Positions 1,544 through 29,141 of a DNA stretch of 47,191 nucleotides are shown here, in pieces (position 1 is the first letter of the stretch; the number at the start of each line of letters is the position of its first letter). Under the pieces are notes generated by a model. The model was not told the origin of the DNA. It did not search any database and saw only the letters and a list, made by a program, of their open reading frames with translations. The stretch is from Bacteriovoracaceae bacterium. GTDB taxonomy: Bacteria > Bdellovibrionota > Bacteriovoracia > Bacteriovoracales > Bacteriovoracaceae. The translations under genes were made by a program, and so were the position numbers. The DNA lies in the NCBI GenBank assembly GCA_020631435.1, contig JAHDHG010000001.1:1-47191 (forward strand), in the 5' to 3' direction.

Positions 1544-3742
1544 ATGAAATTAATTTTGATAATTATTTCAATTCAGTTGTTTTCACAAGATTATATAGTC
1601 GACGGAATCGAATATTTAAATAATGAAGAAGAATGTAATGATGGAAGCCATTTAGAACCTTATGACGACTCTTGTTTCCCAGAAGTTTATAGTGAAATCA
1701 ATCATTATTATGAAAAACACAAAGAATATTCGAAAATATTATTTGAAAAAAAGAAAGCTCTTTACGAACAAGAGCATTATAAAAAAAGTCAGATCGCGAA
1801 CGCATATGTAAATCATTATGTTCCTAAATACTCAAAATTCAAAATAGATCAAAAGAAATATAAACGCTTTCACCAATTAAAAGAAATGGGGGTTGGATAT
1901 GACGAAGTTTATACACCAGATACAGCTAAGTTCATTTTAGATTTTTGTTCTAATAATGGAAAAGATCTTTATCCACCTATTGGTAAATGTAGAATTGAAG
2001 ATTATGAAGATGCTTCAAAGAAAAACTCATTTATAAGTTTTGCTGGAAAGTCTAAAAATGACGGTGTTGATGTACTTGATTACATAAGAAGTTTACAAGC
2101 TAAATCTATGGGATTTGGAGGAGAAGAAAATACAACTCTAACTGAAGAAGAAGCGAAGTTATTAATTGGATACAAAGATCAAAAGTTATCACACATCTAT
2201 ACTATGGGTGGTATCTTAGGAGACGATCCTTTGATGTCTGATTCTCTTTCCGAATATGGCTGTCCTGTAAAGCGTCGAGAAATGGCAAGTGGTAGACTTG
2301 GCGGAATGGATGGATTTGATGATGTATTTTTTAATATTCTTACAATGGGAGTGGGAAAATTAGTTTTACTTTCATTAAATAAATTAAGAAGCATGGCCCT
2401 CAGACTTGGATTTAAAAAATCTTTGAAAAATTATTCTAAACAACAATTGGCAAAGTTAATTTTGAGCCTAAAGAATACTGCAAATATAGCACTTGGGAAA
2501 AAACTTTCCGCAAAAGCTGATAAAGTTCTCAGAAACGAATTTGCAGAAGTAATAGTTGGCAGATCACTAAATAAAACCGAGAAAGAAGCTGTCTGGTTAG
2601 CACATTTAGTTGGATGGGGAAAAAAAGGGAAAAATGGAAAGTTAGCTGGCTATAATAATTACACTAAGGCCCAACTAAAAGAAAAATTTCAAATTTTAAA
2701 AAAAGCAGGGTTTAGTGATGATGAGATAAGAAGTCTAATCAGAAATGGAATTGTCGGCGATAAAGGTCCTGTTGATACGGCAATCATTATTAGAAGAAAT
2801 ATTAATAAATATATTGGACCAGAAGTTTTATTTAAACCTTCAAAAGAAATGAGTGAAGAAGCATTTGAGAAATTCGTAAAAAAACAGCTAGATGATGCTC
2901 TCAAAGGTTGCAAGGGAAATGAAGAATGCATAGACCTAGTTTTAAAGAGAGTAAGTAGATTAAATACTTATGGTAAAAAACATATCGATAAAGTGATTTC
3001 AGGTTACAAAACTGCCACTAACGCCGCCGCAAAAAATGCAACTAGTACATATACTAAAACAAAAGTTGTATCAGTAACGACCTCAAGACTAGACAGTGCA
3101 CCTTCAACGAAAGAATTCATAGAAAGAGCAGACAAAAACATTAAAAGTATGACTGAGGCAATAGAAAAAAACAAGAAGAGAAGAGATGAATTATTAAAGA
3201 AGTCAAAAGAAAGTGATGAGTTTGCAAAAAAAGCTAAGTCTGAACTTGATGAACTTAACTCAAATATAAAATATACAGAAAATAAAATTTCAGAGACGAT
3301 TGCTTCAAAAAAAGTAGTAGACAAAATAGAGACTTTTCCAATTCCAGAAAAGCTCGATGATTACATTAGTTTTGGAGGAGACAAATTCCAAGAAATAAAT
3401 AGATATCAAGATAAAATGGATGGCATAAGGTCAAATGTAAAATCAGAAGTTACTAAACTCAACACAACAGGCGTAGATGCAAAAGTTACGAAACAGTTAA
3501 AAACATTGGCGAATCAAAAGGTATATAAGTTTTCAAAATCTATTGATTCAGCAGAGAGAGTGAAAGTTGGATATTTAAATACAGTTAAACAATCACTTGA
3601 AACTATTTCAAAACGTTCTTCTAAAAAATACCAAGAGTTATTAAGTACAAAAAAATATACTCAAAATGATCTTTTAGAGTTTAGAGGACAAGGTTTCCTA
3701 ACCGATTTCGAATATACTAAACTCTCTAAACTTTTAGATTAA
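1544..3742 (+). CDS. Large hypothetical secreted protein (732 aa) with an N-terminal signal-like segment and a Lys-rich, coiled-coil-like C-terminal third
   Basis: Long uninterrupted ORF. The N-terminus MKLILIIISIQLFSQ is hydrophobic. I recognise no family motif. The C-terminal ~230 aa are K/E/S/T-rich with a heptad-like character. Confidence 0.8.
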   Translation: MKLILIIISIQLFSQDYIVDGIEYLNNEEECNDGSHLEPYDDSCFPEVYSEINHYYEKHKEYSKILFEKKKALYEQEHYKKSQIANAYVNHYVPKYSKFKIDQKKYKRFHQLKEMGVGYDEVYTPDTAKFILDFCSNNGKDLYPPIGKCRIEDYEDASKKNSFISFAGKSKNDGVDVLDYIRSLQAKSMGFGGEENTTLTEEEAKLLIGYKDQKLSHIYTMGGILGDDPLMSDSLSEYGCPVKRREMASGRLGGMDGFDDVFFNILTMGVGKLVLLSLNKLRSMALRLGFKKSLKNYSKQQLAKLILSLKNTANIALGKKLSAKADKVLRNEFAEVIVGRSLNKTEKEAVWLAHLVGWGKKGKNGKLAGYNNYTKAQLKEKFQILKKAGFSDDEIRSLIRNGIVGDKGPVDTAIIIRRNINKYIGPEVLFKPSKEMSEEAFEKFVKKQLDDALKGCKGNEECIDLVLKRVSRLNTYGKKHIDKVISGYKTATNAAAKNATSTYTKTKVVSVTTSRLDSAPSTKEFIERADKNIKSMTEAIEKNKKRRDELLKKSKESDEFAKKAKSELDELNSNIKYTENKISETIASKKVVDKIETFPIPEKLDDYISFGGDKFQEINRYQDKMDGIRSNVKSEVTKLNTTGVDAKVTKQLKTLANQKVYKFSKSIDSAERVKVGYLNTVKQSLETISKRSSKKYQELLSTKKYTQNDLLEFRGQGFLTDFEYTKLSKLLD

Positions 3743-6134
3743 ATCCTGCTTGAGCTAACTCATCAACAACCTTCTCCTCATAAGACTTGATCACCTCAGC
3801 AGAAAGAGTTTCATTAGAATTAGAGAAATTAAACCTTAAAGTGACAGCGTTATGCTCATCGTTTAAATCAAAAGATTTTACTATTTTAGCAGATTCTAAA
3901 TCTTTATTTTTTAACTTCTTTGTCACCTTCAAAGTCTCCGAAGCATGCATCGATTTTGGAACTAAAACAGTACAATCAAATTGCGAACTAGGAAACTTAG
4001 AAATTGGATTATATTTATGAGCCTTCTGAACTTGAGATTTACAAAAATCAGTTAAATCCAGCATTAAAATTGAGAGATGTCCTTTAATTTTAAAATCTCT
4101 TAAAACTATGGGGTGAACTGAAAAAGCAGCTCCTAAAGTTTTTCCTCTAATAGCGATATCCATATATTCATGAGGATGCAGACCTTTCCATTTTTGAGGT
4201 ATAAGTGAGCAAGGCTTTCTAGAATTTTCTTTTGTTGCGAGTTGATAATTTAGACCTAGAAAATTTAAAAACTTCTCGGAAGTATTCAATAAATTTACAA
4301 AAGAAGAAGAAGTCTTAGAGAAAAATGCTAGACCAAGCACATTTCTCTCATCTTCGAAGTCATTATATACTCTCCCCCACTCAAAGAAAGAAAAGTCTGA
4401 AAAGTTCTTAGTATTCACAGATGCCATTTCAAGAAAATTAGGAACAAGACTAGGTCTCATCCGATCTTGATCGACTGACAAAGAGTTAATCAAAGAAAGT
4501 TTTTCATTTAAATTTGGCCATGAGGCCTTTTTAAGAAGCTTTTTTCCTATAAGAGGATAACTCATCACTTCTAAACTCTTGGCATGTAAAGACATGAAGT
4601 CTTGTATCTTTCTTTCCATTTCTTTATAAGGGGTCAGTCTTACTGGATTGACTCCAAGAAAAGGTGATTTTATTGGAATTGTATCATAACCAACAATTCT
4701 TCCAATTTCTTCAGCTAAATCATGCTGCCCTTCAATATCTTTAGTTGCTCTATAAGTGGGAACTTTTACTTCAAAATCATTACTGCCAGTAACTTCAAAA
4801 TCTAAACTTTCTAGAATAGATTTAATTTTTCCACTCTCAAGTTCTAATCCCAAAATATTATTAATATAAGCCGAGGAAGTTTTTATTCGCGGCTTTTCAT
4901 TATTTATAGTTGATCCATCATAAACTGGCTTACCAACCACTTTAGCATCTGGGCAAAGTTCTAAAACTAAATCTAAAGTTCTTAGTAAAGTTCGATAACA
5001 AAGATTCAAATCTAGAGACTTTTCAAACCTTGTAGAAGAGTCTGTTCTAAGTCCAAGTCTCGTAGAAGTTTTTCTTACTTCTTCAGCTTTCCAATTTGCA
5101 ACTTCAATAAAAATATTTTTTGAATTATCTTGAACACCACTGTTAGCTCCGCCCATCACACCTGCTAAAACCAAAGCCTTATCGTTATCAGAAATTACTG
5201 TATCTGTATCAAGAAGAGTTCTTTCCATTTCATCTAAAGTTGTAAATTTTTCATTTTCTTTAGCAAGATGAATTTTTAACTCATTACCGTTAATAAGGTC
5301 TCTATCGTAAATGTGAAGTGGAAGCCCCAGCTCAATCATGACATAATTAGAAATGTCTACAATATTATTTATAGACCTAAGCCCCACGGCCTCTAACCTA
5401 TCGACCATCCATTGAGGACTTTCACTCACTGTAATATTATCAACACTGAGCCCCCAGAAACCTAAACAAGAAGATTCAGGCTGAACCTTAAGATTAATTG
5501 GATTTGGATCAGAATTAAACTTTGATTCTAGATTATTTTTCCAACTCTCACTAAATTTATCGTTAAGAGGAGTTTCATAGATAGCTGAAAACTCTCTAGC
5601 TAATCCAAAATGCCCCCATAGATCTGGTCGATGAGTAAGTGATTTATTATCAACATCAATTAAAGTATCAGAGTTAATATTTAAATGAGTTTTTAAATTT
5701 TCACCAAGAGGAGCATCGTTTGATAACTCCATTAAACCAGAAGCGCCATCTCCTAATCCTAGTTCAGATGCGGAACAAAGCATCCCTTCACTCAAAACTC
5801 CTCTAATTTTTTTAGGCTCTAGAGTAAATCCTCCAGGAAGAGTGACTCCAATTTTTGCATAAGGAACCTTGAGTCCAACTTTAACATTAGGAGCTCCACA
5901 GACTACTCTTGCTGTATTAGATCCATCAGTAAATGTTACCAAATTCAGCTTATCAGCTTCAGGATGTTTTGCGATTTCAGTGATTTCAACAACTCTAATT
6001 ACTTCAAGATGAGAATTTACTTTTTTAACTTCTTCGACTTCTGCAGTTTTCATCGTAAAAGTGTTAGCAAGATCGTGAATATTTACTTCTGGCAAATTAA
6101 CGAAGTCTTTTATCCAATTAAGAGAGATTAACAT
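3726..6134 (-). CDS. pheT: Phenylalanine--tRNA ligase beta subunit
   Basis: 802 aa. The N-terminus MLISLNWIKDF… with a tRNA-binding domain (KHPEADKL…VVCGAPN), B3/4 and B5 regions is typical of PheT. It lies directly downstream of pheS. Confidence 0.95.
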   Translation of the reverse strand: MLISLNWIKDFVNLPEVNIHDLANTFTMKTAEVEEVKKVNSHLEVIRVVEITEIAKHPEADKLNLVTFTDGSNTARVVCGAPNVKVGLKVPYAKIGVTLPGGFTLEPKKIRGVLSEGMLCSASELGLGDGASGLMELSNDAPLGENLKTHLNINSDTLIDVDNKSLTHRPDLWGHFGLAREFSAIYETPLNDKFSESWKNNLESKFNSDPNPINLKVQPESSCLGFWGLSVDNITVSESPQWMVDRLEAVGLRSINNIVDISNYVMIELGLPLHIYDRDLINGNELKIHLAKENEKFTTLDEMERTLLDTDTVISDNDKALVLAGVMGGANSGVQDNSKNIFIEVANWKAEEVRKTSTRLGLRTDSSTRFEKSLDLNLCYRTLLRTLDLVLELCPDAKVVGKPVYDGSTINNEKPRIKTSSAYINNILGLELESGKIKSILESLDFEVTGSNDFEVKVPTYRATKDIEGQHDLAEEIGRIVGYDTIPIKSPFLGVNPVRLTPYKEMERKIQDFMSLHAKSLEVMSYPLIGKKLLKKASWPNLNEKLSLINSLSVDQDRMRPSLVPNFLEMASVNTKNFSDFSFFEWGRVYNDFEDERNVLGLAFFSKTSSSFVNLLNTSEKFLNFLGLNYQLATKENSRKPCSLIPQKWKGLHPHEYMDIAIRGKTLGAAFSVHPIVLRDFKIKGHLSILMLDLTDFCKSQVQKAHKYNPISKFPSSQFDCTVLVPKSMHASETLKVTKKLKNKDLESAKIVKSFDLNDEHNAVTLRFNFSNSNETLSAEVIKSYEEKVVDELAQAGFNLKV

Positions 6135-11524: not shown

Positions 11525-12502
11525 TTAATCGCAATCTTCGCAAGAGTCATCAACATATTTAATAGTCCTAGAGTCTTCTCCAATATTGAAGATTCTTCTA
11601 TTTTTCTCGGACTTATATTTTACAGGGTGAATTGTTTCAATCGCTTCAAGATTAAAATCAATTCTCTTTCTTGATCCAAGGAATCCTGTTCCTTGTCTCG
11701 TATATACTCTATAAACTTCGTACTGATGCATATCTAGTTTATCCATCTTGAACTTTAAAGTTATAGTGTCATCATTTTCAGTATCTTTACATGTTTTGAA
11801 AGTTTTTCTAAAAGCGTTACATTGTTGGTATCCATATTGATCAAAACATTGCGCTCTTAAGTTTGAAATTGAAATAATATTTCCTTTATCATCTACTCTT
11901 GAGTCATATAATGCTTCACATCCATTAGCTTCGATCGCTTGAATAGCTTTTACATATTCAGCGTTTGCATCAACTTTCTCTCCACAAAGCTTTGATTCAT
12001 CGATATGAAAATCAATAAATTCTTGGAAGTTATCAGTTTCAACATATTTATACATATTAGCTCTCATCTTTACCTTAACTTTTGAAGGAGTTAGGTTTGT
12101 TCGAACTAAGCATGCTAAGTTTGAATTCGTTTCTACTCTATCACTATTTAATTCAATTACTCTAGCATGAGTTACAGCAGCTCCAGATCCATCATGTAGA
12201 CCTTGAATACATTTACTGTGAATTTCAGCTCTTTGAACTGGTGTTAAAGTGTAGACATCAGTAGAATTGGCTACAAATTCTGATTCAAGTGGAATAGCTT
12301 GAGTAGTGTCTACTTGTTCAGTTTGTTGTGTTTGAGGTGGAATTTCTACTTGAGTTCCTTGAGGAAAAGTTGTTGTGACAACAGGGCTTGTTTCGATTCC
12401 TGCTTCAGCAGTTTTCTTTTTGTTCGTTTTAACTTTTCCAATTTTTTCTTCTGAGCTACAAGATGCTAGAAGAAGAGAAATGACTAATAATAAAGTTTTC
12501 AT
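11525..12502 (-). CDS. Hypothetical lipoprotein (Cys-rich mature part)
   Basis: The N-terminus MKTLLLVISLLLASCSS is a signal peptide plus lipobox (LLASC). 325-aa ORF with a terminator downstream. Confidence 0.85.
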   Translation of the reverse strand: MKTLLLVISLLLASCSSEEKIGKVKTNKKKTAEAGIETSPVVTTTFPQGTQVEIPPQTQQTEQVDTTQAIPLESEFVANSTDVYTLTPVQRAEIHSKCIQGLHDGSGAAVTHARVIELNSDRVETNSNLACLVRTNLTPSKVKVKMRANMYKYVETDNFQEFIDFHIDESKLCGEKVDANAEYVKAIQAIEANGCEALYDSRVDDKGNIISISNLRAQCFDQYGYQQCNAFRKTFKTCKDTENDDTITLKFKMDKLDMHQYEVYRVYTRQGTGFLGSRKRIDFNLEAIETIHPVKYKSEKNRRIFNIGEDSRTIKYVDDSCEDCD

Positions 12503-12633
12503 AATTTGACTTCCTTTTAACTGTTACAGATTTTATGATAAGCGGAATTTTTGCGTCAGAGTGTAACATTGGTAGATATTACAAATTGTGCATATTTTTT
12601 GATCAAAATCACGAATTGGGATATGATCAAAAT

Positions 12634-13296
12634 ATGAAATTTGAGGTACTTACAGGCAGAACTGATGAACATCTAGTAAATCTAGAGCATGGTCAAAGAA
12701 TTCATAAAAGCTGTTATGACGATTTTTTTAGACTCAAAGGTACATTATCCAGCAAAAAAATCGATATGAGATCTGCTAGCTCCTTTCGCTCATATGAGAG
12801 ACAAAGAACTATTTGGAACGAAAAAGCTGAAGGAAAACGTATATTAAGAGATATTAATGGAAATCCTCTTAATTATGATGAACTTAATTGTGAAGAAATT
12901 TTTTGGGCAATTTTAAATTGGAGCTCAATCCCTGGAACTTCAAGACATCATTGGGGTACAGATCTAGATGTTTATGATCACTCTAAATACTTGAATGGAG
13001 AGAGATTAAGATTAATAAATAGTGAGTATCAAGGCGAAGGCCCTAATGCGAAATTAAGCGAAGAGTTATTTAAAAATACAGATCTTTTCTATAGGCCCTA
13101 TCTTGATGGTAAAAGTTATCAAATGGAATTATGGCATATGAGCCATGTTAAAATCTCTAAAGAATTTTCTGATAAATATACGATCGATGTATTTAAAAAA
13201 TCAGTCAGCGAAGACCCTAAATTACTGCTTAAAGAGCATATAATTAAGAATATTGATTTTTTGTATAAGAAGTATATCGCTCTTAAAGGTGCATAA
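12634..13296 (+). CDS. Peptidase M15 family (VanY/LdcB-like D,D- or L,D-carboxypeptidase fold), no obvious signal peptide
   Basis: SFRSYERQ…, SRHHWGTDLDV and ELWHMSH fit the M15 His/Asp/His zinc-site arrangement. I prefer the ATG at 12634 (MKFEVL…) to the track start at 12535, because 12535 leaves only 32 nt to the divergent gene. Confidence 0.75.
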   Translation: MKFEVLTGRTDEHLVNLEHGQRIHKSCYDDFFRLKGTLSSKKIDMRSASSFRSYERQRTIWNEKAEGKRILRDINGNPLNYDELNCEEIFWAILNWSSIPGTSRHHWGTDLDVYDHSKYLNGERLRLINSEYQGEGPNAKLSEELFKNTDLFYRPYLDGKSYQMELWHMSHVKISKEFSDKYTIDVFKKSVSEDPKLLLKEHIIKNIDFLYKKYIALKGA

Positions 13297-13523
13297 AGTC
13301 ACTGATTTGATCTATAAAATCCCTTTATTTTCCATCTAAAGCCACCTTTGCCAAATCTGTCATTTTCTAAACTTTTTTTGAGCGATTTCTCTTACCTAAC
13401 AGTTAGACTTATTCCTTTTGAGAATTCACAATTCTTTGTTAATTTCATATTAATTGTTCATTTGGAGAAAGAATCTCAGAATCGAATTTATCTAATTTAA
13501 TAAACTTTGGAGGAGCTAAGTTT

Positions 13524-14732
13524 ATGAGAAATTTATCAGTTTATAATGTATTCATGACATTATTCTTTTGTTTAGCATTTGGTGTTGAAACCTATGCTAA
13601 CGATAGAGGGGGAAGTCGACGGGGCGGTGTATCCCGATCTGGAGGAAGTTCAAGAACTTCAACTCCTAGAAGAGCACCATCAAGATCACCAAGAACTACT
13701 CCGAGCAGAAGCTCGAGCAGATCTTCTGGATCCACGACTAGTCGATCAAGAACTTCGACACCAAGAAGATCATCTGGTTCAACAACTGGAAGATCAAGAA
13801 CTCAACCACCAAGAAGGGGTTCTTCTACTGGTTCTAGAACTACTCCAAGAAGCGGTTCTTCAACTGGATCAAGAACGACACCTCCAAGAAGAGGATCTAC
13901 AACTGGGTCAAGAACTACTCCTAGAAGAGGATCAACGACAGGATCAAGAACTACTCCTAGAAGAGGATCAACGACAGGTTCAAGAACTACTCCTAGAAGT
14001 GGTGGTTCTAGAACAACTCCTCCAAGAAGAGGAACTGGTAGAACAACTCCTAGAACTGGAAATAGAAGACCTGTACCACAGAGACATAGAGCTTCTAGAA
14101 GAGGTCATATTAGATCGAGAGTTTATTCTTCTTATGGAACAAATAGATACTTTAGACCTTATAGAACTCATAGAGTTAACAGATATGTTTATAGACCACA
14201 TAGAGTTTATACTAATATCTATTACCATAGCTTTTTCTGGTCACCGTTCTCTTACTCAAACTATGTATTAAGTGTTCATAGAAGACACTTCTACAGAAAT
14301 TGGATTTATTTCTATCACTATGGACATACGGGATATTTAGTTCATAACGGATATCCATATTTTGTCTACAATAGCTACAGACATAGATATTCAAGAATTG
14401 ATACTTGTAACTACCAATTAGTAGATAAGTGTTATGGAACAACGATTAAAACTTATTGGAATCAATTCTGTAACATCGGTTATGATAGATGTGCAGAACA
14501 AAGAGATCTATTAAATAGATATGAAGGTGAGTATAGATTCTCATGTGCTGAAACACACAGAGCTAGTACATACTCTTATTTCAACAATAGAGATACGAGA
14601 TACTTACAATGTGATGGCTCAGCAAACTTCGATGATCATTACTATGATGATGAATATGATCATGATGATTACTATGATGATTATTACTCATCAAGTTCAT
14701 ATGGAAACGATGATTATTATGATCCATTTTAG
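13524..14732 (+). CDS. Secreted low-complexity protein: signal peptide, Arg/Ser/Thr/Pro/Gly tandem repeats, Tyr/His/Arg-rich region, Cys-containing module, Asp/Tyr acidic tail
   Basis: GGAGG lies 8 nt upstream of the ATG. The N-terminus is hydrophobic (FMTLFFCLAFGVETYA). The 402-aa ORF is followed by a strong terminator. The alternative-frame ORFs in the track are repeat artefacts. Confidence 0.85.
   Translation: MRNLSVYNVFMTLFFCLAFGVETYANDRGGSRRGGVSRSGGSSRTSTPRRAPSRSPRTTPSRSSSRSSGSTTSRSRTSTPRRSSGSTTGRSRTQPPRRGSSTGSRTTPRSGSSTGSRTTPPRRGSTTGSRTTPRRGSTTGSRTTPRRGSTTGSRTTPRSGGSRTTPPRRGTGRTTPRTGNRRPVPQRHRASRRGHIRSRVYSSYGTNRYFRPYRTHRVNRYVYRPHRVYTNIYYHSFFWSPFSYSNYVLSVHRRHFYRNWIYFYHYGHTGYLVHNGYPYFVYNSYRHRYSRIDTCNYQLVDKCYGTTIKTYWNQFCNIGYDRCAEQRDLLNRYEGEYRFSCAETHRASTYSYFNNRDTRYLQCDGSANFDDHYYDDEYDHDDYYDDYYSSSSYGNDDYYDPF
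13818..14000 (+). repeat. In-frame 36-39 nt tandem repeats (five clear units encoding GS[ST]TGSRTTP(P)R[RS]), with degenerate copies flanking (~13727-14057)
   Basis: Units start at 13818, 13854, 13893, 13929 and 13965. Units 13929-13964 and 13965-14000 differ at only 2 of 36 positions. Confidence 0.9.
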
Positions 14733-14793
14733 AAATATGATTTAACGAATTTGAAGGTGGGTGTACCTCTACTTTCAAATCCAAGCACACCAA

Positions 14794-14822
14794 GGGGTCG
14801 TCTTCGGATGGCCCTTTTTTTT
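14794..14822 (+). terminator. Rho-independent terminator
   Basis: GGGTCGTC-TTCG-GATGGCCC forms an 8-bp stem (two G.U pairs) with a TTCG tetraloop, followed by T8. Confidence 0.8.
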
Positions 14823-15240
14823 ACTCTATTATTATTCCACAAGCATCAAACCATTCTTGATTAGCTGCTATCAACTTTCTTTCTTTTAAGTCAAAAAAGC
14901 CAACCATGAATTCTGCTCTAGAGCAAAGCTCTCCTTCTCTCGTCATCGATTGATTTAAGAACATATACTTGCCTTCAACCCTGCTGGCCTTAGAGATGAT
15001 TTGAATTTGATCTAAGTTTTTAATTTCTCTTCTAAACTGAATATTGGCATTTAATAAAACAGGGCCTTTCATTTCTGATCTGATTTTATCTAATCCAAAA
15101 CCATTTTTTTCTATAAAGTCCCAACGTGCAATTTCATAAAGAGTTGAATATCTTGCATTATTCATGTGCCCGAAGGGATCTAAGTCTGCACCATTTACTT
15201 GATAAGAGTAAGTAAACTCTTTTGCTGATAAAATTTTCAT
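14821..15240 (-). CDS. Hotdog-fold acyl-CoA thioesterase (4HBT/YbgC-like)
   Basis: 139 aa. The N-terminal DLDPFGHMNNARY motif is typical of the 4-hydroxybenzoyl-CoA thioesterase family. Confidence 0.8.
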   Translation of the reverse strand: MKILSAKEFTYSYQVNGADLDPFGHMNNARYSTLYEIARWDFIEKNGFGLDKIRSEMKGPVLLNANIQFRREIKNLDQIQIISKASRVEGKYMFLNQSMTREGELCSRAEFMVGFFDLKERKLIAANQEWFDACGIIIE

Positions 15241-15242
15241 TC

Positions 15243-16829
15243 TTAATTTTTAAACTTATTATGCGAATACACCATGATTTTTCTAGCTTTATAACTTTTT
15301 CTATGAGCTCTCGTGATTCTCTTAAACAATGTAAAGCCAGAAGATTTTCTCACACCTTCTTGTGCTAGTGCTCTTTTGAGCTTATTAGAATCTTTTATAT
15401 TAAGTCCACCTTTACTCTTTTTAAGCTTTGCCAGTGGATTAAAGTTAAAATCTTTCTTTTTTCTTTTGTTTCTCTGAGATAATTTAAAAAGCCTTCTCGC
15501 TTTAGACCTCTTATAACTATTTAGTTTATTAGCTCCTCTTGAAGCTACTGCACCACTACCATCTTTATCTTTTTCTCCTGCTCCAGGAGCTCCTCCAGAA
15601 CTCCCACCACTTGTACCACCACCACCGGCTCCACTTGCTACAACAGGACTTGCTGCACCGGGGTTTCCTGCCTCTGGTTTAATCGCATTAGGATCTTCTG
15701 GTGAATCGTCTTCTGCTAATTTTCCATCTGGTGCGCCAATACCGCCACCAGAATCACCACCACTATCACTAGATCCCGAAGAACTTCCACCTGAAGAACT
15801 TCCTCCGCTAGATCTTCCGCCTATTCTTGGGGCACCTGGCCCACCTGAGTATGGGTTATCTCCGTTTGGATTTGTTGGTGTTATACATTCAGCGGGTAAT
15901 GGAGTTTGGTTACAGTAATTGAATGGGTCTGGTGTATTTTCAACTAACCCAACTTTTTCCAATTCACTTTTTAATACATCTTGATGTTCAATTCCTGCTA
16001 CTACTTCGGTACCATGTTGTATTGCAAGTTGAGCAAATTCAGCTTTTTTATTTTCAACTTCAGTTCGCTCTTTAGCAGAAAAACGAGTATTCCAATTGTT
16101 TAAATTTTTATTTAACTTAAGTACGGCCCTAGCATAAGTAGCTCCTGCAACTGTGTTATGTTGATTTTTAGATTTATTTGTATTCATTTGACCTTCAAGG
16201 GCAACTCTTTGAATACTACCACCTATCTCTTGGGCACTTTCTAATTCCTTTCTTGTTTTATTACTTTGTAGTTGAATTCTACCTATAGAAGCACCTTTTA
16301 ATAAAAGAACTTGTTTTTCTACTCTAGCTATGACGTTGAATGAGTTTTCACAAAGTGCAATTTCCTCTTCAACATATTGTTGGAATGTACCTCTATCCAA
16401 CCCCTCTTTAAAGTTATCCTCCACATACTGAGTTATAGAACTCTCACTAGATCCTGGCTGACATCTACTTCTATTAGCTAATCGACTTTCATTTCTAGAT
16501 ATTCGATCTTTCCAGTGTTGATTAGCAGAGACTCCATCTTCAGGACAACTTTTATAAATTTCCTTGTAATGCTTTTTATTTCCAAAATGAAATGCAGTAT
16601 TTAGTTGTGCTTGGCACTTATCTGAATTTATAACTCCGTCAGAGTTTGTTGCTTCTGATTCCGAGCTAGTAGCACTCCCCAAACCAGTTGATCCAACAGA
16701 ACCTAAATCTTGCTCAAGGAAAGCAGCAGCACCAGGTTTCAATTCCTCAGAATCAATTGAATCCTGACCTGACTCCTGAACATAAGCATTAAAACTAAAT
16801 AAAATAAAAAACCCCATTAAAATCTTCAT
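15243..16829 (-). CDS. Hypothetical secreted protein with a Gly/Ser-rich tract and a strongly basic C-terminal tail
   Basis: Signal-like N-terminus MKILMGFFILFSFNAYVQE. The tract GGRSSGGSSSGGSSSGSSDSGGDSGGG and the last ~110 aa (K/R-rich) are distinctive. The stop lies 2 nt from the downstream thioesterase gene. Confidence 0.8.
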   Translation of the reverse strand: MKILMGFFILFSFNAYVQESGQDSIDSEELKPGAAAFLEQDLGSVGSTGLGSATSSESEATNSDGVINSDKCQAQLNTAFHFGNKKHYKEIYKSCPEDGVSANQHWKDRISRNESRLANRSRCQPGSSESSITQYVEDNFKEGLDRGTFQQYVEEEIALCENSFNVIARVEKQVLLLKGASIGRIQLQSNKTRKELESAQEIGGSIQRVALEGQMNTNKSKNQHNTVAGATYARAVLKLNKNLNNWNTRFSAKERTEVENKKAEFAQLAIQHGTEVVAGIEHQDVLKSELEKVGLVENTPDPFNYCNQTPLPAECITPTNPNGDNPYSGGPGAPRIGGRSSGGSSSGGSSSGSSDSGGDSGGGIGAPDGKLAEDDSPEDPNAIKPEAGNPGAASPVVASGAGGGGTSGGSSGGAPGAGEKDKDGSGAVASRGANKLNSYKRSKARRLFKLSQRNKRKKKDFNFNPLAKLKKSKGGLNIKDSNKLKRALAQEGVRKSSGFTLFKRITRAHRKSYKARKIMVYSHNKFKN

Positions 16830-27812: not shown

Positions 27813-29141
27813 TTAAGTTCTAGCTCTATAGCAAGAAATTATTCGAGGGAATACCAAGTCATATCCTGATGTAAAAAAGCCAAGATCATCAGAAGATGAG
27901 CCTGTTACAGACTTCATAGTGTTATGAAAATCATCCCATAAAACTCCGTTTTGGTCTTCAAATGGATTTGAGCTAAGTTCTCCACCTCTTTGCAGGTAAG
28001 ATATGTCTTGCAAGCAAGATGAGTATGAAATCCATTGATTTTCATCAATACCGATCTGATGCGTATGGTCAAAACCAAGCATGTGCCCAATCTCATGAGA
28101 GTAAACTGTTCCTTTCTCGTTTCCAATTTTTGAATATTCAGAAACAACTGTAGATTCTTTGCTTTCTGGAACTCTATTAAGTTTCGCAATTCCTGCAACA
28201 TTTCCTTGAATTTCTTTTACAAAAACTAAAGAGACCTCTCCTACTTTTCCATATTTATCCAAGATGTTTTCAAAATCATTACAAGATAGATCTCTCGGGT
28301 CACAGTGAACATGAACCAAATTATCTTCAACTTCTATCGCTTCTGAGATTTCAAATTGAAAGAAAGATGAACTTCCATCTCTATTTATCTTTTCATTTAA
28401 AGTTTTTAAAACAAGATCAGCATCCGCACTCACATCTTCAGATAAAGTTGTTTGAGAGCTATTTACAAAAACTATCCTAATAGGAATTTTGTTACTATCA
28501 ATTTCTGAAATAGTTTTATTAAAATGAAGTTTAGCAGAAGAAGTTCTTCCAGTGTTATCTGCAATGGTATAAGAAATTTCAAATGAAGACTCAAGATCAA
28601 AATTTTCATCAAAATTTACTTTAATTCTATTGTTTTCGATAGTTGTGCTTACTCCCTCTATCGATTCAACTTCGTTGATAGTTATAGGATCCCCATCTAC
28701 ATCAATATCGTTTTCTAAAACGTTGACTAAAATTTCATCATTTGATTCTAAATTAACTAGATCATCTGATGAATTTGGGTTGTCTGCTACTGCTCTCACT
28801 TCTAAGATCAATTCGGAAACTACAATCTCATTTGTTGAAAGATTCTCCCAGAACACTCTTACCAAATCAGCTCCTGAATAGTTATGATGAGGGTGATATA
28901 TAAATTTGCCTCCATTTTCTTGAATTTCAATATTGGAATGAACACCATCCATCTTAATCAGCTTATGAGTTTTAGAAAGTGGTAAGTCTCTAAAAACTAT
29001 CTCTTTAGAAAAATTTACTTCAATGTCTTCAGTGGTCACAACCTTGGTTGTTAAGAGGCCATCAGAGTTTGTATTTCCGGGATCTTCTCCATCTGTCGTT
29101 ATTGAGCATGATAAAAATAATGTAAGTAGAAGTATTCTCAC
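27813..29141 (-). CDS. Lipoprotein metzincin-type zinc metallopeptidase with an N-terminal cadherin-like/VCBS-type domain
   Basis: MRILLLTLFLSCS (lipobox LFLSC, GTG start). NVLENDIDVDGDPITI is typical of cadherin-like bacterial adhesion repeats. HEIGHMLGFDHTH matches HExxHxxGxxH. Confidence 0.85.
   Translation of the reverse strand: MRILLLTLFLSCSITTDGEDPGNTNSDGLLTTKVVTTEDIEVNFSKEIVFRDLPLSKTHKLIKMDGVHSNIEIQENGGKFIYHPHHNYSGADLVRVFWENLSTNEIVVSELILEVRAVADNPNSSDDLVNLESNDEILVNVLENDIDVDGDPITINEVESIEGVSTTIENNRIKVNFDENFDLESSFEISYTIADNTGRTSSAKLHFNKTISEIDSNKIPIRIVFVNSSQTTLSEDVSADADLVLKTLNEKINRDGSSSFFQFEISEAIEVEDNLVHVHCDPRDLSCNDFENILDKYGKVGEVSLVFVKEIQGNVAGIAKLNRVPESKESTVVSEYSKIGNEKGTVYSHEIGHMLGFDHTHQIGIDENQWISYSSCLQDISYLQRGGELSSNPFEDQNGVLWDDFHNTMKSVTGSSSDDLGFFTSGYDLVFPRIISCYRART

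Follow-up and report, generated by a model that had tools for sequence, protein, structure and literature searches.

A predicted exported protein family of the predatory Bacteriovoracales that joins a conserved Tyr-rich domain to lineage-specific arginine-rich repeats

In the window analysed here, a stretch of 47,191 nucleotides from a Bacteriovoracaceae bacterium (assembly GCA_020631435.1, contig JAHDHG010000001.1), the open reading frame (ORF) at 13524-14732 is a true gene, equipped with a ribosome-binding site and a terminator, and its product belongs to a protein family that is uncharacterised and restricted to the predatory Bacteriovoracales. The members of this family share one layout: a Sec-type signal peptide, an Arg-rich and Lys-poor cationic region, a Tyr-rich domain of about 130 residues with two Cys pairs and, often, an acidic tail. 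The Tyr-rich block and the Cys segment are confidently predicted to form a single folded alpha/beta domain, and each lineage rebuilds the region N-terminal to it from different in-frame tandem repeats. The family is new, as nothing related by sequence or fold was found in Pfam, NCBIfam, the PDB or BFVD.

Prey recognition, attachment and entry by the Bacteriovoracales (Halobacteriovorax, Bacteriovorax and Peredibacter, marine and freshwater) are far less understood than those of Bdellovibrio. A family that is order-wide, present mostly as a syntenic copy and exported by prediction is a tractable candidate for lineage-specific envelope or predation biology. Its predicted domain, which has no relative among solved structures, is a target for structure determination and for the family databases, and its presumed disordered region offers a clean natural example of selection on composition and not on sequence. 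Nevertheless, the product has for now the status of a conserved hypothetical protein, and secreted proteins of unassigned function that are limited to one lineage are common.

Reading frame, family and gene order

The ORF begins with ATG, the first start codon downstream of an in-frame stop. The features of the gene and its product are listed here by position in the window.

13509-13515, forward: Shine-Dalgarno sequence GGAGGAG, 8 nucleotides 5' of the ATG, read from the sequence
13524-14732, forward: coding sequence of 402 residues plus stop codon, from the ORF list, its frame backed by homologs whose C-terminal halves are 41-72% identical
13524-13598, forward: predicted signal peptide, residues 1-25, its n, h and c regions read from the sequence, predicted cleavage after ETYA
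13599-14123, forward: Arg/Ser/Thr/Gly/Pro low-complexity region, residues 26-200, presumed disordered from its composition
13818-14000, forward: five near-perfect tandem units of 36 or 39 nucleotides, GS[ST]TGSRTTP(P)R[RS], residues 99-159, from Tandem Repeats Finder (TRF) and a unit-by-unit listing
14124-14186, forward: conserved lead-in, residues 201-221, with the motif YGT..Y.RPY; P212 and Y221 are invariant in a 7-sequence alignment, and the mean predicted local distance difference test score (pLDDT) is 41-53
14187-14576, forward: predicted Tyr-rich, Cys-paired alpha/beta domain, residues 222-351, from an AlphaFold2 model and conserved residues
14406-14548, forward: family-wide Cys residues C295, C316, C323 and C341, from the Cys patterns among 215 aligned members
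14577-14639, forward: linker with the subclade-specific C363, mean pLDDT 56-59
14640-14729, forward: acidic Asp/Tyr tail, residues 373-402, from its composition
14792-14825, forward: intrinsic terminator, hairpin and T-run, from a terminator scan, abutting the stop codon of a convergent 4HBT gene

An earlier note on this DNA, made from the sequence alone, had described a gene with a strong Shine-Dalgarno sequence and terminator that seems to be expressed on its own. The signals agree with this description: the terminator scan returns a hairpin at 14792-14817 with 11 pairs (5 of them G-C), a loop of 4 and a following T-run, and the region holds 4 terminator-like sites where 0.5 are expected from shuffled sequence. 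Homologs keep the same frame and architecture, as the note required of a real gene. Since the reading frame and the whole architecture are common to homologs, the ORF is more than a chance product.

The N-terminus, which the same note had called signal-like, runs from MRNLSVYN through the hydrophobic stretch VFMTLFFCLAFGV to ETYA in the order of a signal peptide, and the full-length relatives carry clear Sec signal peptides with the typical ending ...A-x-A-Q. A lipobox of the form [LVI][ASTVI][GAS]C is not found at the end of the signal peptide, the context of C16 being LFFC, and the signal peptides of the relatives are free of Cys.

A full-length search was dominated by low-complexity candidates and yielded one match (P0001) among 8000 scored; the C-terminal half and profiles were used instead. 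P0001 has the same layout as the window protein, with 41% identity over residues 202-352 (E = 1e-23). In a collection of 5.8 billion proteins 112 clusters matched, and a profile search of 1.84 billion cluster representatives returned 141 representatives at E <= 1e-3, and for 126 of these E was 1e-10 or lower. The window protein forms the first row of the core alignments A2 and A3 from which the family profiles were built. The family is present in at least 84 species genomes, from which 80 loci were kept, and the closest relatives by core identity are those of loci L003 (72%) and L083 and L084 (both 68%). All sources list the relatives as hypothetical proteins, with no Pfam domain on record.

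The labels of the matches correspond to the class Bacteriovoracia, order Bacteriovoracales, almost all of them reading Bacteriovoracaceae, Halobacteriovoraceae, Bacteriovoracales, Bacteriovorax stolpii, Peredibacter or Halobacteriovorax. The exceptions are one metagenome-assembled genome (MAG) labelled Bdellovibrio sp. and three labelled Bdellovibrionales. Three further MAGs, labelled Flavobacteriaceae, Sulfitobacter and Cloacimonadota, also carry a family gene; these labels are probably binning errors, and the Flavobacteriaceae-labelled contig (L005) shows the typical gene order of the family.

This gene order is defined by the two flanking genes.

12631-13296 (12535-13296 if the start is placed further upstream), forward: upstream gene for a VanY-like (M15) peptidase without signal peptide (Pfam VanY, E = 1.4e-19)
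14821-15240, reverse: downstream, convergent gene for a 4HBT-type thioesterase (Pfam 4HBT_2, E = 1.6e-22)

Of 82 related loci, many of them truncated on the upstream side, 37 have the VanY-like gene upstream and in the same orientation, and 57 have the 4HBT gene downstream and convergent. The same order surrounds P0001. Both neighbours are only 35-55% identical to those of the window. They are enzymes of cytoplasmic type, which mark an old orthologous position but suggest no functional link. A second set of loci is without this order, some MAGs hold two or three copies of the family gene, and the copies of cultured Halobacteriovorax lie in unrelated gene contexts.

The Tyr-rich domain, the acidic tail and the repeats

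We predicted the structure of the region downstream of the repeats with AlphaFold2, first from a 7-sequence alignment (pLDDT 74) and then from 58 sequences, which gave a mean pLDDT of 83 (80.6-83.0 over the five models) with a predicted template modelling score of 0.78. In blocks of 10 residues the mean pLDDT is 88-97 over residues 222-341 and 86 over residues 342-351. The predicted elements are a helix, three short aromatic strands with Asn-Gly-type turns (GYLVH-NG-YPYFVY-NS-YRHR), a long hairpin (TCNYQLVD / TTIKTYWNQF), a helix of 19 residues (CNIGYDRCAEQRDLLNRYE) and a final strand (FSCAET). The earlier note had separated a Tyr/His/Arg block from a module with six Cys; the composition stands (residues 201-290 hold 23% Y, 13% R, 10% H and 8% N), as do the six Cys of the mature protein, but the model merges the two modules into one domain.

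The window protein has every invariant or nearly invariant column of the family. In its numbering these are W260, G270, Y277, P278, V281, G284, R288, Y289, S290, C295, Y297, L299, V300 and D301 in the first half, and C316, Y320, D321, C323, R327, D328, N331, R338, Y339, C341 and E343 in the second. It thus carries the full core motif with its four Cys, W..(N)GY....YPY.V.NGY..RYS..D.C.YQLVD ... C..(G)YD.C...RD..N ... RY.C.E.

The mature protein has Cys at 295, 303, 316, 323, 341 and 363; a further one, C16, falls within the signal peptide. The family as a whole shares just four of the six mature Cys: among the 215 aligned members the pattern is CCCC in 204, xxCC in 8, xxxC in 2 and xxCx in 1, and the first two are always lost together. 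From this co-loss we infer disulfides C295-C316 and C323-C341. C303 and C363 are specific to the subclade of the window, being kept in its two closest orthologs (L084 and L085), and would probably form a third disulfide, so that the module of six Cys that had been proposed holds for this subclade only. In a separate subfamily, with cores such as SYDPGSYDLVDS...SIKQSYDRCAELRD, Gly and Ile/Leu replace the first Cys pair. Its members have Lys instead of Arg just upstream of the core and end in the Trp/Tyr/Asp motif DYPDWYWY.

Searches of the family and structure databases bear out the expectation that no characterised family has this architecture. Pfam gave no family for the window protein at E <= 10, and none or noise for 20 relatives; NCBIfam gave none for the window protein at E <= 1, nor for four out of five relatives. 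The remaining relative, P0167, matched Por_Secre_tail at E = 0.065, with 13.2 bits against a cut-off of 23, and P0172 matched New_glue with 21 bits against a cut-off of 31; we rejected both as falling below the cut-off and tied to signal-peptide or low-complexity sequence, and a faint match to PFF1_TM, below its cut-off and tied to the same kind of sequence, was set aside as well. A profile of 58 core sequences found no match at E <= 10 among PDB sequences (hmmsearch). With the model of pLDDT 83, Foldseek returned nothing significant from the PDB (best E = 0.6, template modelling (TM) score <= 0.2) or from BFVD, where the best match, at E = 0.011 over 60 columns, is an uncharacterised phage protein. 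A literature search found no description of the family and no expression data set of Halobacteriovorax to which it could be linked.

Below the significance threshold, the partial Foldseek matches are mostly to aromatic beta-hairpin binders (choline-binding repeats, the TcdA/TcsH CROPs, CBM51 and SGBP-B), and we take them as a lead only, a weak hint that the modelled domain might bind glycans. Like the choline-binding CW_binding_1 repeats and the CROPs, the domain has short beta-hairpins in which Tyr/Phe/Trp residues alternate and the turns are Asn-Gly (NGYPYFVYNSYRHRY). On the other hand, these matches are not significant (E >= 1.3, probability <= 0.1, TM <= 0.3), Pfam gives no match at E <= 10, and the hairpins do not form a solenoid but belong to a single predicted domain, together with two helices and two inferred disulfides.

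The tail of the window protein (residues 373-402) is an Asp/Tyr-rich acidic segment, as had been read from the sequence, with 33% Y, 33% D and a net charge of -11. About half of the family members end directly after the domain and have no tail; the short simple tails of others are net negative and rich in Tyr and Asp, like that of the window protein. In 48 of 301 relatives the tail position holds one to three modules C-x-D-x-[DN]-x-D-G-x-C-D (carriers include P0114, P0117, P0029, L014 and L019). With its 11 residues this module is shorter than Pfam can register; it is a Dx[DN]xDG-type (Excalibur/TSP3-like) loop that a disulfide between its Cys would close. The Dx[DN]xDG motif is described as calcium-binding in many protein families (PMC3123361). 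The motif was not found in the tail of the window protein. A class of paralogs (P0164, P0174, P0134, P0182, P0188, P0139, P0155 and P0171) has in place of the acidic tail a Cys-containing C-terminal domain of about 110 residues, which ends in ...A(I/V)xxG(Y/R)C(F/L/I) and has no Pfam match.

Between signal peptide and domain, the roughly 170 residues of R, S, T, G and P that the earlier note had pointed out correspond to residues 26-200, in which these five make up 92.6% (R 26%, S 22%, T 20%, G 14%, P 10%). The region holds 45 R, no K, one acidic and six hydrophobic residues, giving a net charge of +44. The whole protein has 66 R and 2 K, whereas the other ORFs of the window have 10.4% K and 3.6% R. 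The five near-perfect units noticed earlier are there, flanked by degenerate copies on either side, and TRF reports for the repeat region a period of 36 nucleotides, 5.6 copies and 84% matches. Between the last two units (13929-13964 and 13965-14000) exactly 2 of 36 nucleotides are different, in line with the recent duplication that had been proposed. Ten RR dibasic sites occur in the repeat region, one per repeat; the low-complexity stretch has 17 SR and 10 RS dipeptides, and its longest Arg run is 2.

The G+C content of the repeat region is, as had been observed, above its surroundings (0.45-0.48 against about 0.31 in the flanks). The value at third codon positions (GC3) is only 0.12, against 0.63 at the first two positions, and AGA accounts for 61 of the 66 Arg codons of the gene and for 78% of the Arg codons in the other ORFs of the window. 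The local rise is thus due to the R/S/T/G/P composition written in native codon usage, and we rejected a foreign origin of the gene on codon usage and GC3. In another frame, a shadow ORF of 230 residues with much Glu, Leu and Gln runs across the repeat region (13579-14271, forward); the ortholog L084 has a counterpart at 3330-3794. No start signals were seen for the shadow ORF. Most simply, it is a by-product of repeats that are rich in AGA, ACT and CCT and so free of stops.

We then compared the N-terminal region across 69 unique full-length genes from species genomes. Its length ranges from near zero to about 250 residues. It is net positive in all 69, and R exceeds K in 68. The pooled composition is 19% P, 18.7% R, 15% G, 10% T, 10% N, 9% S and 0.5% K, an excess of R over K of about 37-fold although the proteome is Lys-rich. 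An Arg-rich, K-poor region against a Lys-rich genome background indicates that Arg itself is selected, beyond its positive charge. Tandem repeats in the DNA of this region are present in 59 of the 69 genes, usually with 80-97% match, and in 58 of these 59 the period (9-144 nucleotides) is a multiple of 3, while the units are unrelated between lineages. Thus, L084 carries seven copies of GNGSTTGRTNRSPRT together with GN(G/R)NPRT, and L085 about 28 copies of RPST, and yet their cores are 53-68% identical to that of the window. Further units in the family are PRGPRYNPNPG, EPRREAPSRPAPS, PTRVERPRPTTP and DRRYDDSRTRR.

Loci with 90-100% identical core DNA have arrays that differ by 0-3 residues only. 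The length polymorphism expected from the repeats is therefore seen between species and genera, and hardly between such close relatives. Stability over short distances indicates that the arrays turn over at about the scale of genera, unlike a contingency locus, and hypervariation of that kind is not supported, since near-identical loci hold identical or nearly identical arrays. On many MAG contigs (the start of L003, L010, L012, L025, L035 and others) the family gene lies at the contig end and the repeat-coding 5' part is missing. The tandem repeats evidently break short-read assemblies, and for this reason database copies are often truncated at the N-terminus.

Known repeat proteins resemble this region in composition and design. 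With protamines and SR proteins it shares an Arg-dominated stretch with Ser, Thr, Pro and Gly, SR/RS dipeptides and a strong positive charge. However, SR proteins have an RNA-recognition motif, long runs of RS dipeptides and a nuclear or cytoplasmic location. The window protein has no such motif but a predicted signal peptide, and its RS/SR dipeptides are scattered over 12-residue units and not gathered in runs; protamines have more than 50% Arg in clusters of 4-6, against 26% and a longest run of 2. Relatives also exchange the RS-type unit for unrelated ones, so that the likeness to SR proteins, protamines and mucins remarked on in the earlier note is one of composition and not of homology. 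As for mucin-like O-glycosylated domains, S, T and P amount to 52% of residues 26-200, and the window contains no glycosyltransferase gene.

The spore-coat proteins CotG and CotB of Bacillus have basic Ser/Arg/Lys tandem repeats that are phosphorylated by the kinase CotH. The window protein resembles them as a bacterial extracytoplasmic protein of structural type whose basic, Ser-rich repeats evolve fast by unit duplication. The Pfam and NCBIfam searches showed no sequence relation to them, there is no CotH-like kinase in the 47-kb window, a folded domain is attached to the repeats, and its host is a Gram-negative, non-sporulating predator. Staphylococcal Sdr/Clf proteins bear Ser-Asp repeat stalks, and like them the family combines a signal peptide, a folded domain and compositionally constrained repeats of lineage-dependent length; unlike theirs, the repeats are cationic instead of anionic and precede the domain, neither LPXTG nor any other anchor is present, and Foldseek finds no match to the MSCRAMM folds.

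Proposed function and alternatives

Of the roles suggested in the earlier note, the selection for Arg across the family and the acidic Ca-motif tails of the relatives make those of a polyanion binder, or of an adhesive or phase-separating matrix protein, more plausible than that of a modification substrate. Our preferred reading, which we put forward tentatively, is that of an exported, envelope- or polyanion-binding protein that acts as a sticky tether and is possibly adhesive. Stable disulfides form outside the cytoplasm, and the signal peptides across the family together with the co-loss of a Cys pair argue for export. The protein would leave the cytoplasm by the Sec route, and its domain would then be locked by disulfides in the periplasm or outside the cell. 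There the domain might bind one specific ligand, an envelope glycan being the most plausible candidate; the aromatic hairpins of the domain and its conserved Arg, Asp, Asn, Glu and Tyr would fit a glycan or envelope ligand. The pairing of guanidinium with phosphate tolerates salt better than that of Lys, which fits the marine members, and the Arg stretch could make multivalent, salt-tolerant guanidinium contacts with phosphates and carboxylates, that is with lipopolysaccharide (LPS) phosphates, peptidoglycan and possibly nucleic acid. The acidic tail might bind divalent cations (Ca2+ or Mg2+), or it might turn back and contact the basic stretch. Altogether, the protein would behave as a sticky tether or adhesin at the envelope of the predator or of its prey.

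Several results weigh against this proposal. A literature search returned no experimental or expression data for any family member. The gene context implies no ligand, partner or enzyme, as the VanY-like neighbour is without a signal peptide and the Halobacteriovorax copies lie elsewhere. The carbohydrate-binder matches from Foldseek are far below significance (probability <= 0.1). The tail is missing from about half of the family and in the window protein lacks Dx[DN]xDG, which suggests that it is not essential to the core function. The mature protein could reside in the periplasm, the outer membrane, the medium or the prey, and the conserved R288, D301, D321, R327, D328, N331 and E343 could equally belong to the active site of an enzyme.

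An alternative that we regard as unlikely, if not strongly so, is a housekeeping protein of the predator's own envelope, in which the domain docks on the cell's own peptidoglycan or outer membrane and the repeat region is a flexible spacer across the periplasm, with no direct role in prey contact. Spacer-like linkers are known from SPOR/FtsN-type and TonB-type proteins, and the P/G/S/T-rich region is of the same kind. This explanation accounts well for the one syntenic copy held in a core-genome neighbourhood (pheST, cmk, enolase, VanY-like, 4HBT) across deeply diverged genomes, and arrays that are stable among close relatives (0-3 residues) are more readily explained by a structural constraint on length than by an arms race. 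A spacer does not need Arg, however, and the roughly 37-fold excess of R over K and the positive charge of 69 out of 69 regions point to charge or guanidinium chemistry. The protein has no membrane anchor or lipobox, and a length that goes from near zero to about 250 residues speaks against a fixed distance to be spanned.

We consider it improbable that the protein is, by analogy with sandcastle-worm and mussel adhesives, a self-assembling underwater glue or coacervate, in which the basic, Arg/Tyr-containing N-terminus of one molecule would bind the acidic tail of another, with Ca2+ or Mg2+ bridging, and so fix the predator to its prey. Arg and Tyr are established sticker residues of phase-separating proteins; the window protein has 42 Tyr (10.4% against a background of 3.8%) and opposite charge blocks of +44 and -11 on one chain, 48 of 301 relatives have Ca-motif loops in their tails, and the aquatic or marine predators that are its hosts must attach under water. 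Mussel foot proteins and sandcastle-worm cement are marine bioadhesives, and like these the protein is secreted, by prediction, has an abundance of Tyr, Arg, His, Gly and Asn, and keeps its polybasic and polyacidic segments apart, with Ca-binding motifs in the tails of its relatives. This is analogy and not homology, without evidence of 3,4-dihydroxyphenylalanine (DOPA) or phosphoserine. Moreover, an acidic tail is missing from about half of the family members, the positive charge far outweighs the negative, the Tyr residues lie mostly in the folded domain and not in disordered sequence, and no tyrosinase, DOPA-forming or kinase gene is nearby.

A bolder version of the tether, to which we give slightly less credence than to the glue, is a predator-specific factor for attachment and breaching. 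Here the Arg repeats would displace the divalent cations by which prey LPS is cross-linked and bind its phosphates, the tail would take up the cations and the domain would recognise a prey-envelope glycan, so that a condensed patch forms at the contact site which both glues under water and weakens the outer membrane. If true, the Bacteriovoracales would have a mechanism of prey adhesion or entry that is new and not used by Bdellovibrio. For comparison, Bd0108 of Bdellovibrio bacteriovorus is described as a secreted, intrinsically disordered predation-switch protein (PMC4267844). It shares with the present family a signal peptide, a largely disordered chain and the restriction to predatory Bdellovibrionota; it differs in being small, without the Arg repeats and the Cys/Tyr domain, and no sequence similarity to it emerged in any search.

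It is very unlikely that the product is a pro-protein whose Arg repeats are cut at RR or R-S, displace the divalent cations of prey LPS and permeabilise the outer membrane, with domain and tail as a carrier or neutralising pro-piece. Protamine and polyarginine do displace divalent cations from LPS, and precursors of cationic peptides carry an acidic segment on the same chain, as this protein does; the palette of R, S, P, G and T is protamine-like, and each repeat offers one of the ten RR sites. Nevertheless, with 26% Arg and a longest run of 2 it is far from a protamine, many relatives have no dibasic sites (RPST and PRGPRYNPNPG units) or have Asp/Glu mixed in, and the most conserved part is the domain and not the supposed active peptide. 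Finally, a non-functional origin, as a chance ORF in repetitive DNA or a recent foreign or eukaryote-like acquisition, can be dismissed: low-complexity DNA does make long shadow ORFs (such as 13579-14271) and the G+C is locally raised, but frame and architecture are kept in more than 100 relatives with a conserved domain and gene order, codon usage is native (AGA 61/66, GC3 0.12), and a Shine-Dalgarno sequence and terminator are present.

Upstream element and neighbouring genes

Alignment with the upstream regions of other loci reveals a short conserved element before the gene.

13396-13413, forward: diverged copy of the gene-specific cis element, CTAACAGTTAGACTTATT, from alignment with the upstream regions of L084, L085 and L001

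The family consensus of this element is [CT]TGTAAGTAAAAT, and in the 4-way alignment the positions G/T/A/G/TT/TT are invariant. The form [CT]TGTAAGTAA(AAT) sits about 85 nucleotides before the ATG of the family gene. In 841 kb of related loci, 18 of the 22 occurrences of [CT]TGTAAGTAA lie 60-120 nucleotides upstream of a family gene, and a second conserved sequence, GGTA, follows about 30 nucleotides downstream of it. RNAalifold predicts no pairs in the conserved element and no shared fold, with some flanks palindromic by eye, and a search of Rfam gave nothing above noise. With neither an RNA fold nor an Rfam match, the element is more likely a promoter or operator feature.

The rest of the window is ordinary chromosome, with pheST, cmk, enolase, a POT transporter, ExbBD, a pilus-type ATPase and similar genes. 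Its 47 kb contain no gene for a kinase, a sulfotransferase, a glycosyltransferase or a tyrosinase. Next to the 4HBT gene, 15243-16829 (reverse) encodes an exported-looking low-complexity protein of 528 residues with a signal-like N-terminus, a Ser/Gly-rich middle that raises the G+C to 0.53 at 15550-15850, a Lys-rich C-terminus and no Pfam match; a homolog with 50% identity occupies the matching relative position in L003. Between a DsbH-like thioredoxin gene and the VanY-like gene lies 11525-12502 (reverse), for a putative lipoprotein of 325 residues with a lipobox-like LLASCSS; its C-terminal half contains several Cys, Pfam gives no match, and the gene is not conserved in the related loci examined. 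Further away, the product of 27813-29141 (reverse) has predicted bacterial Ig/cadherin-like domains and a weak signature of a reprolysin-type (M12B) metalloprotease, and may be a predation hydrolase.

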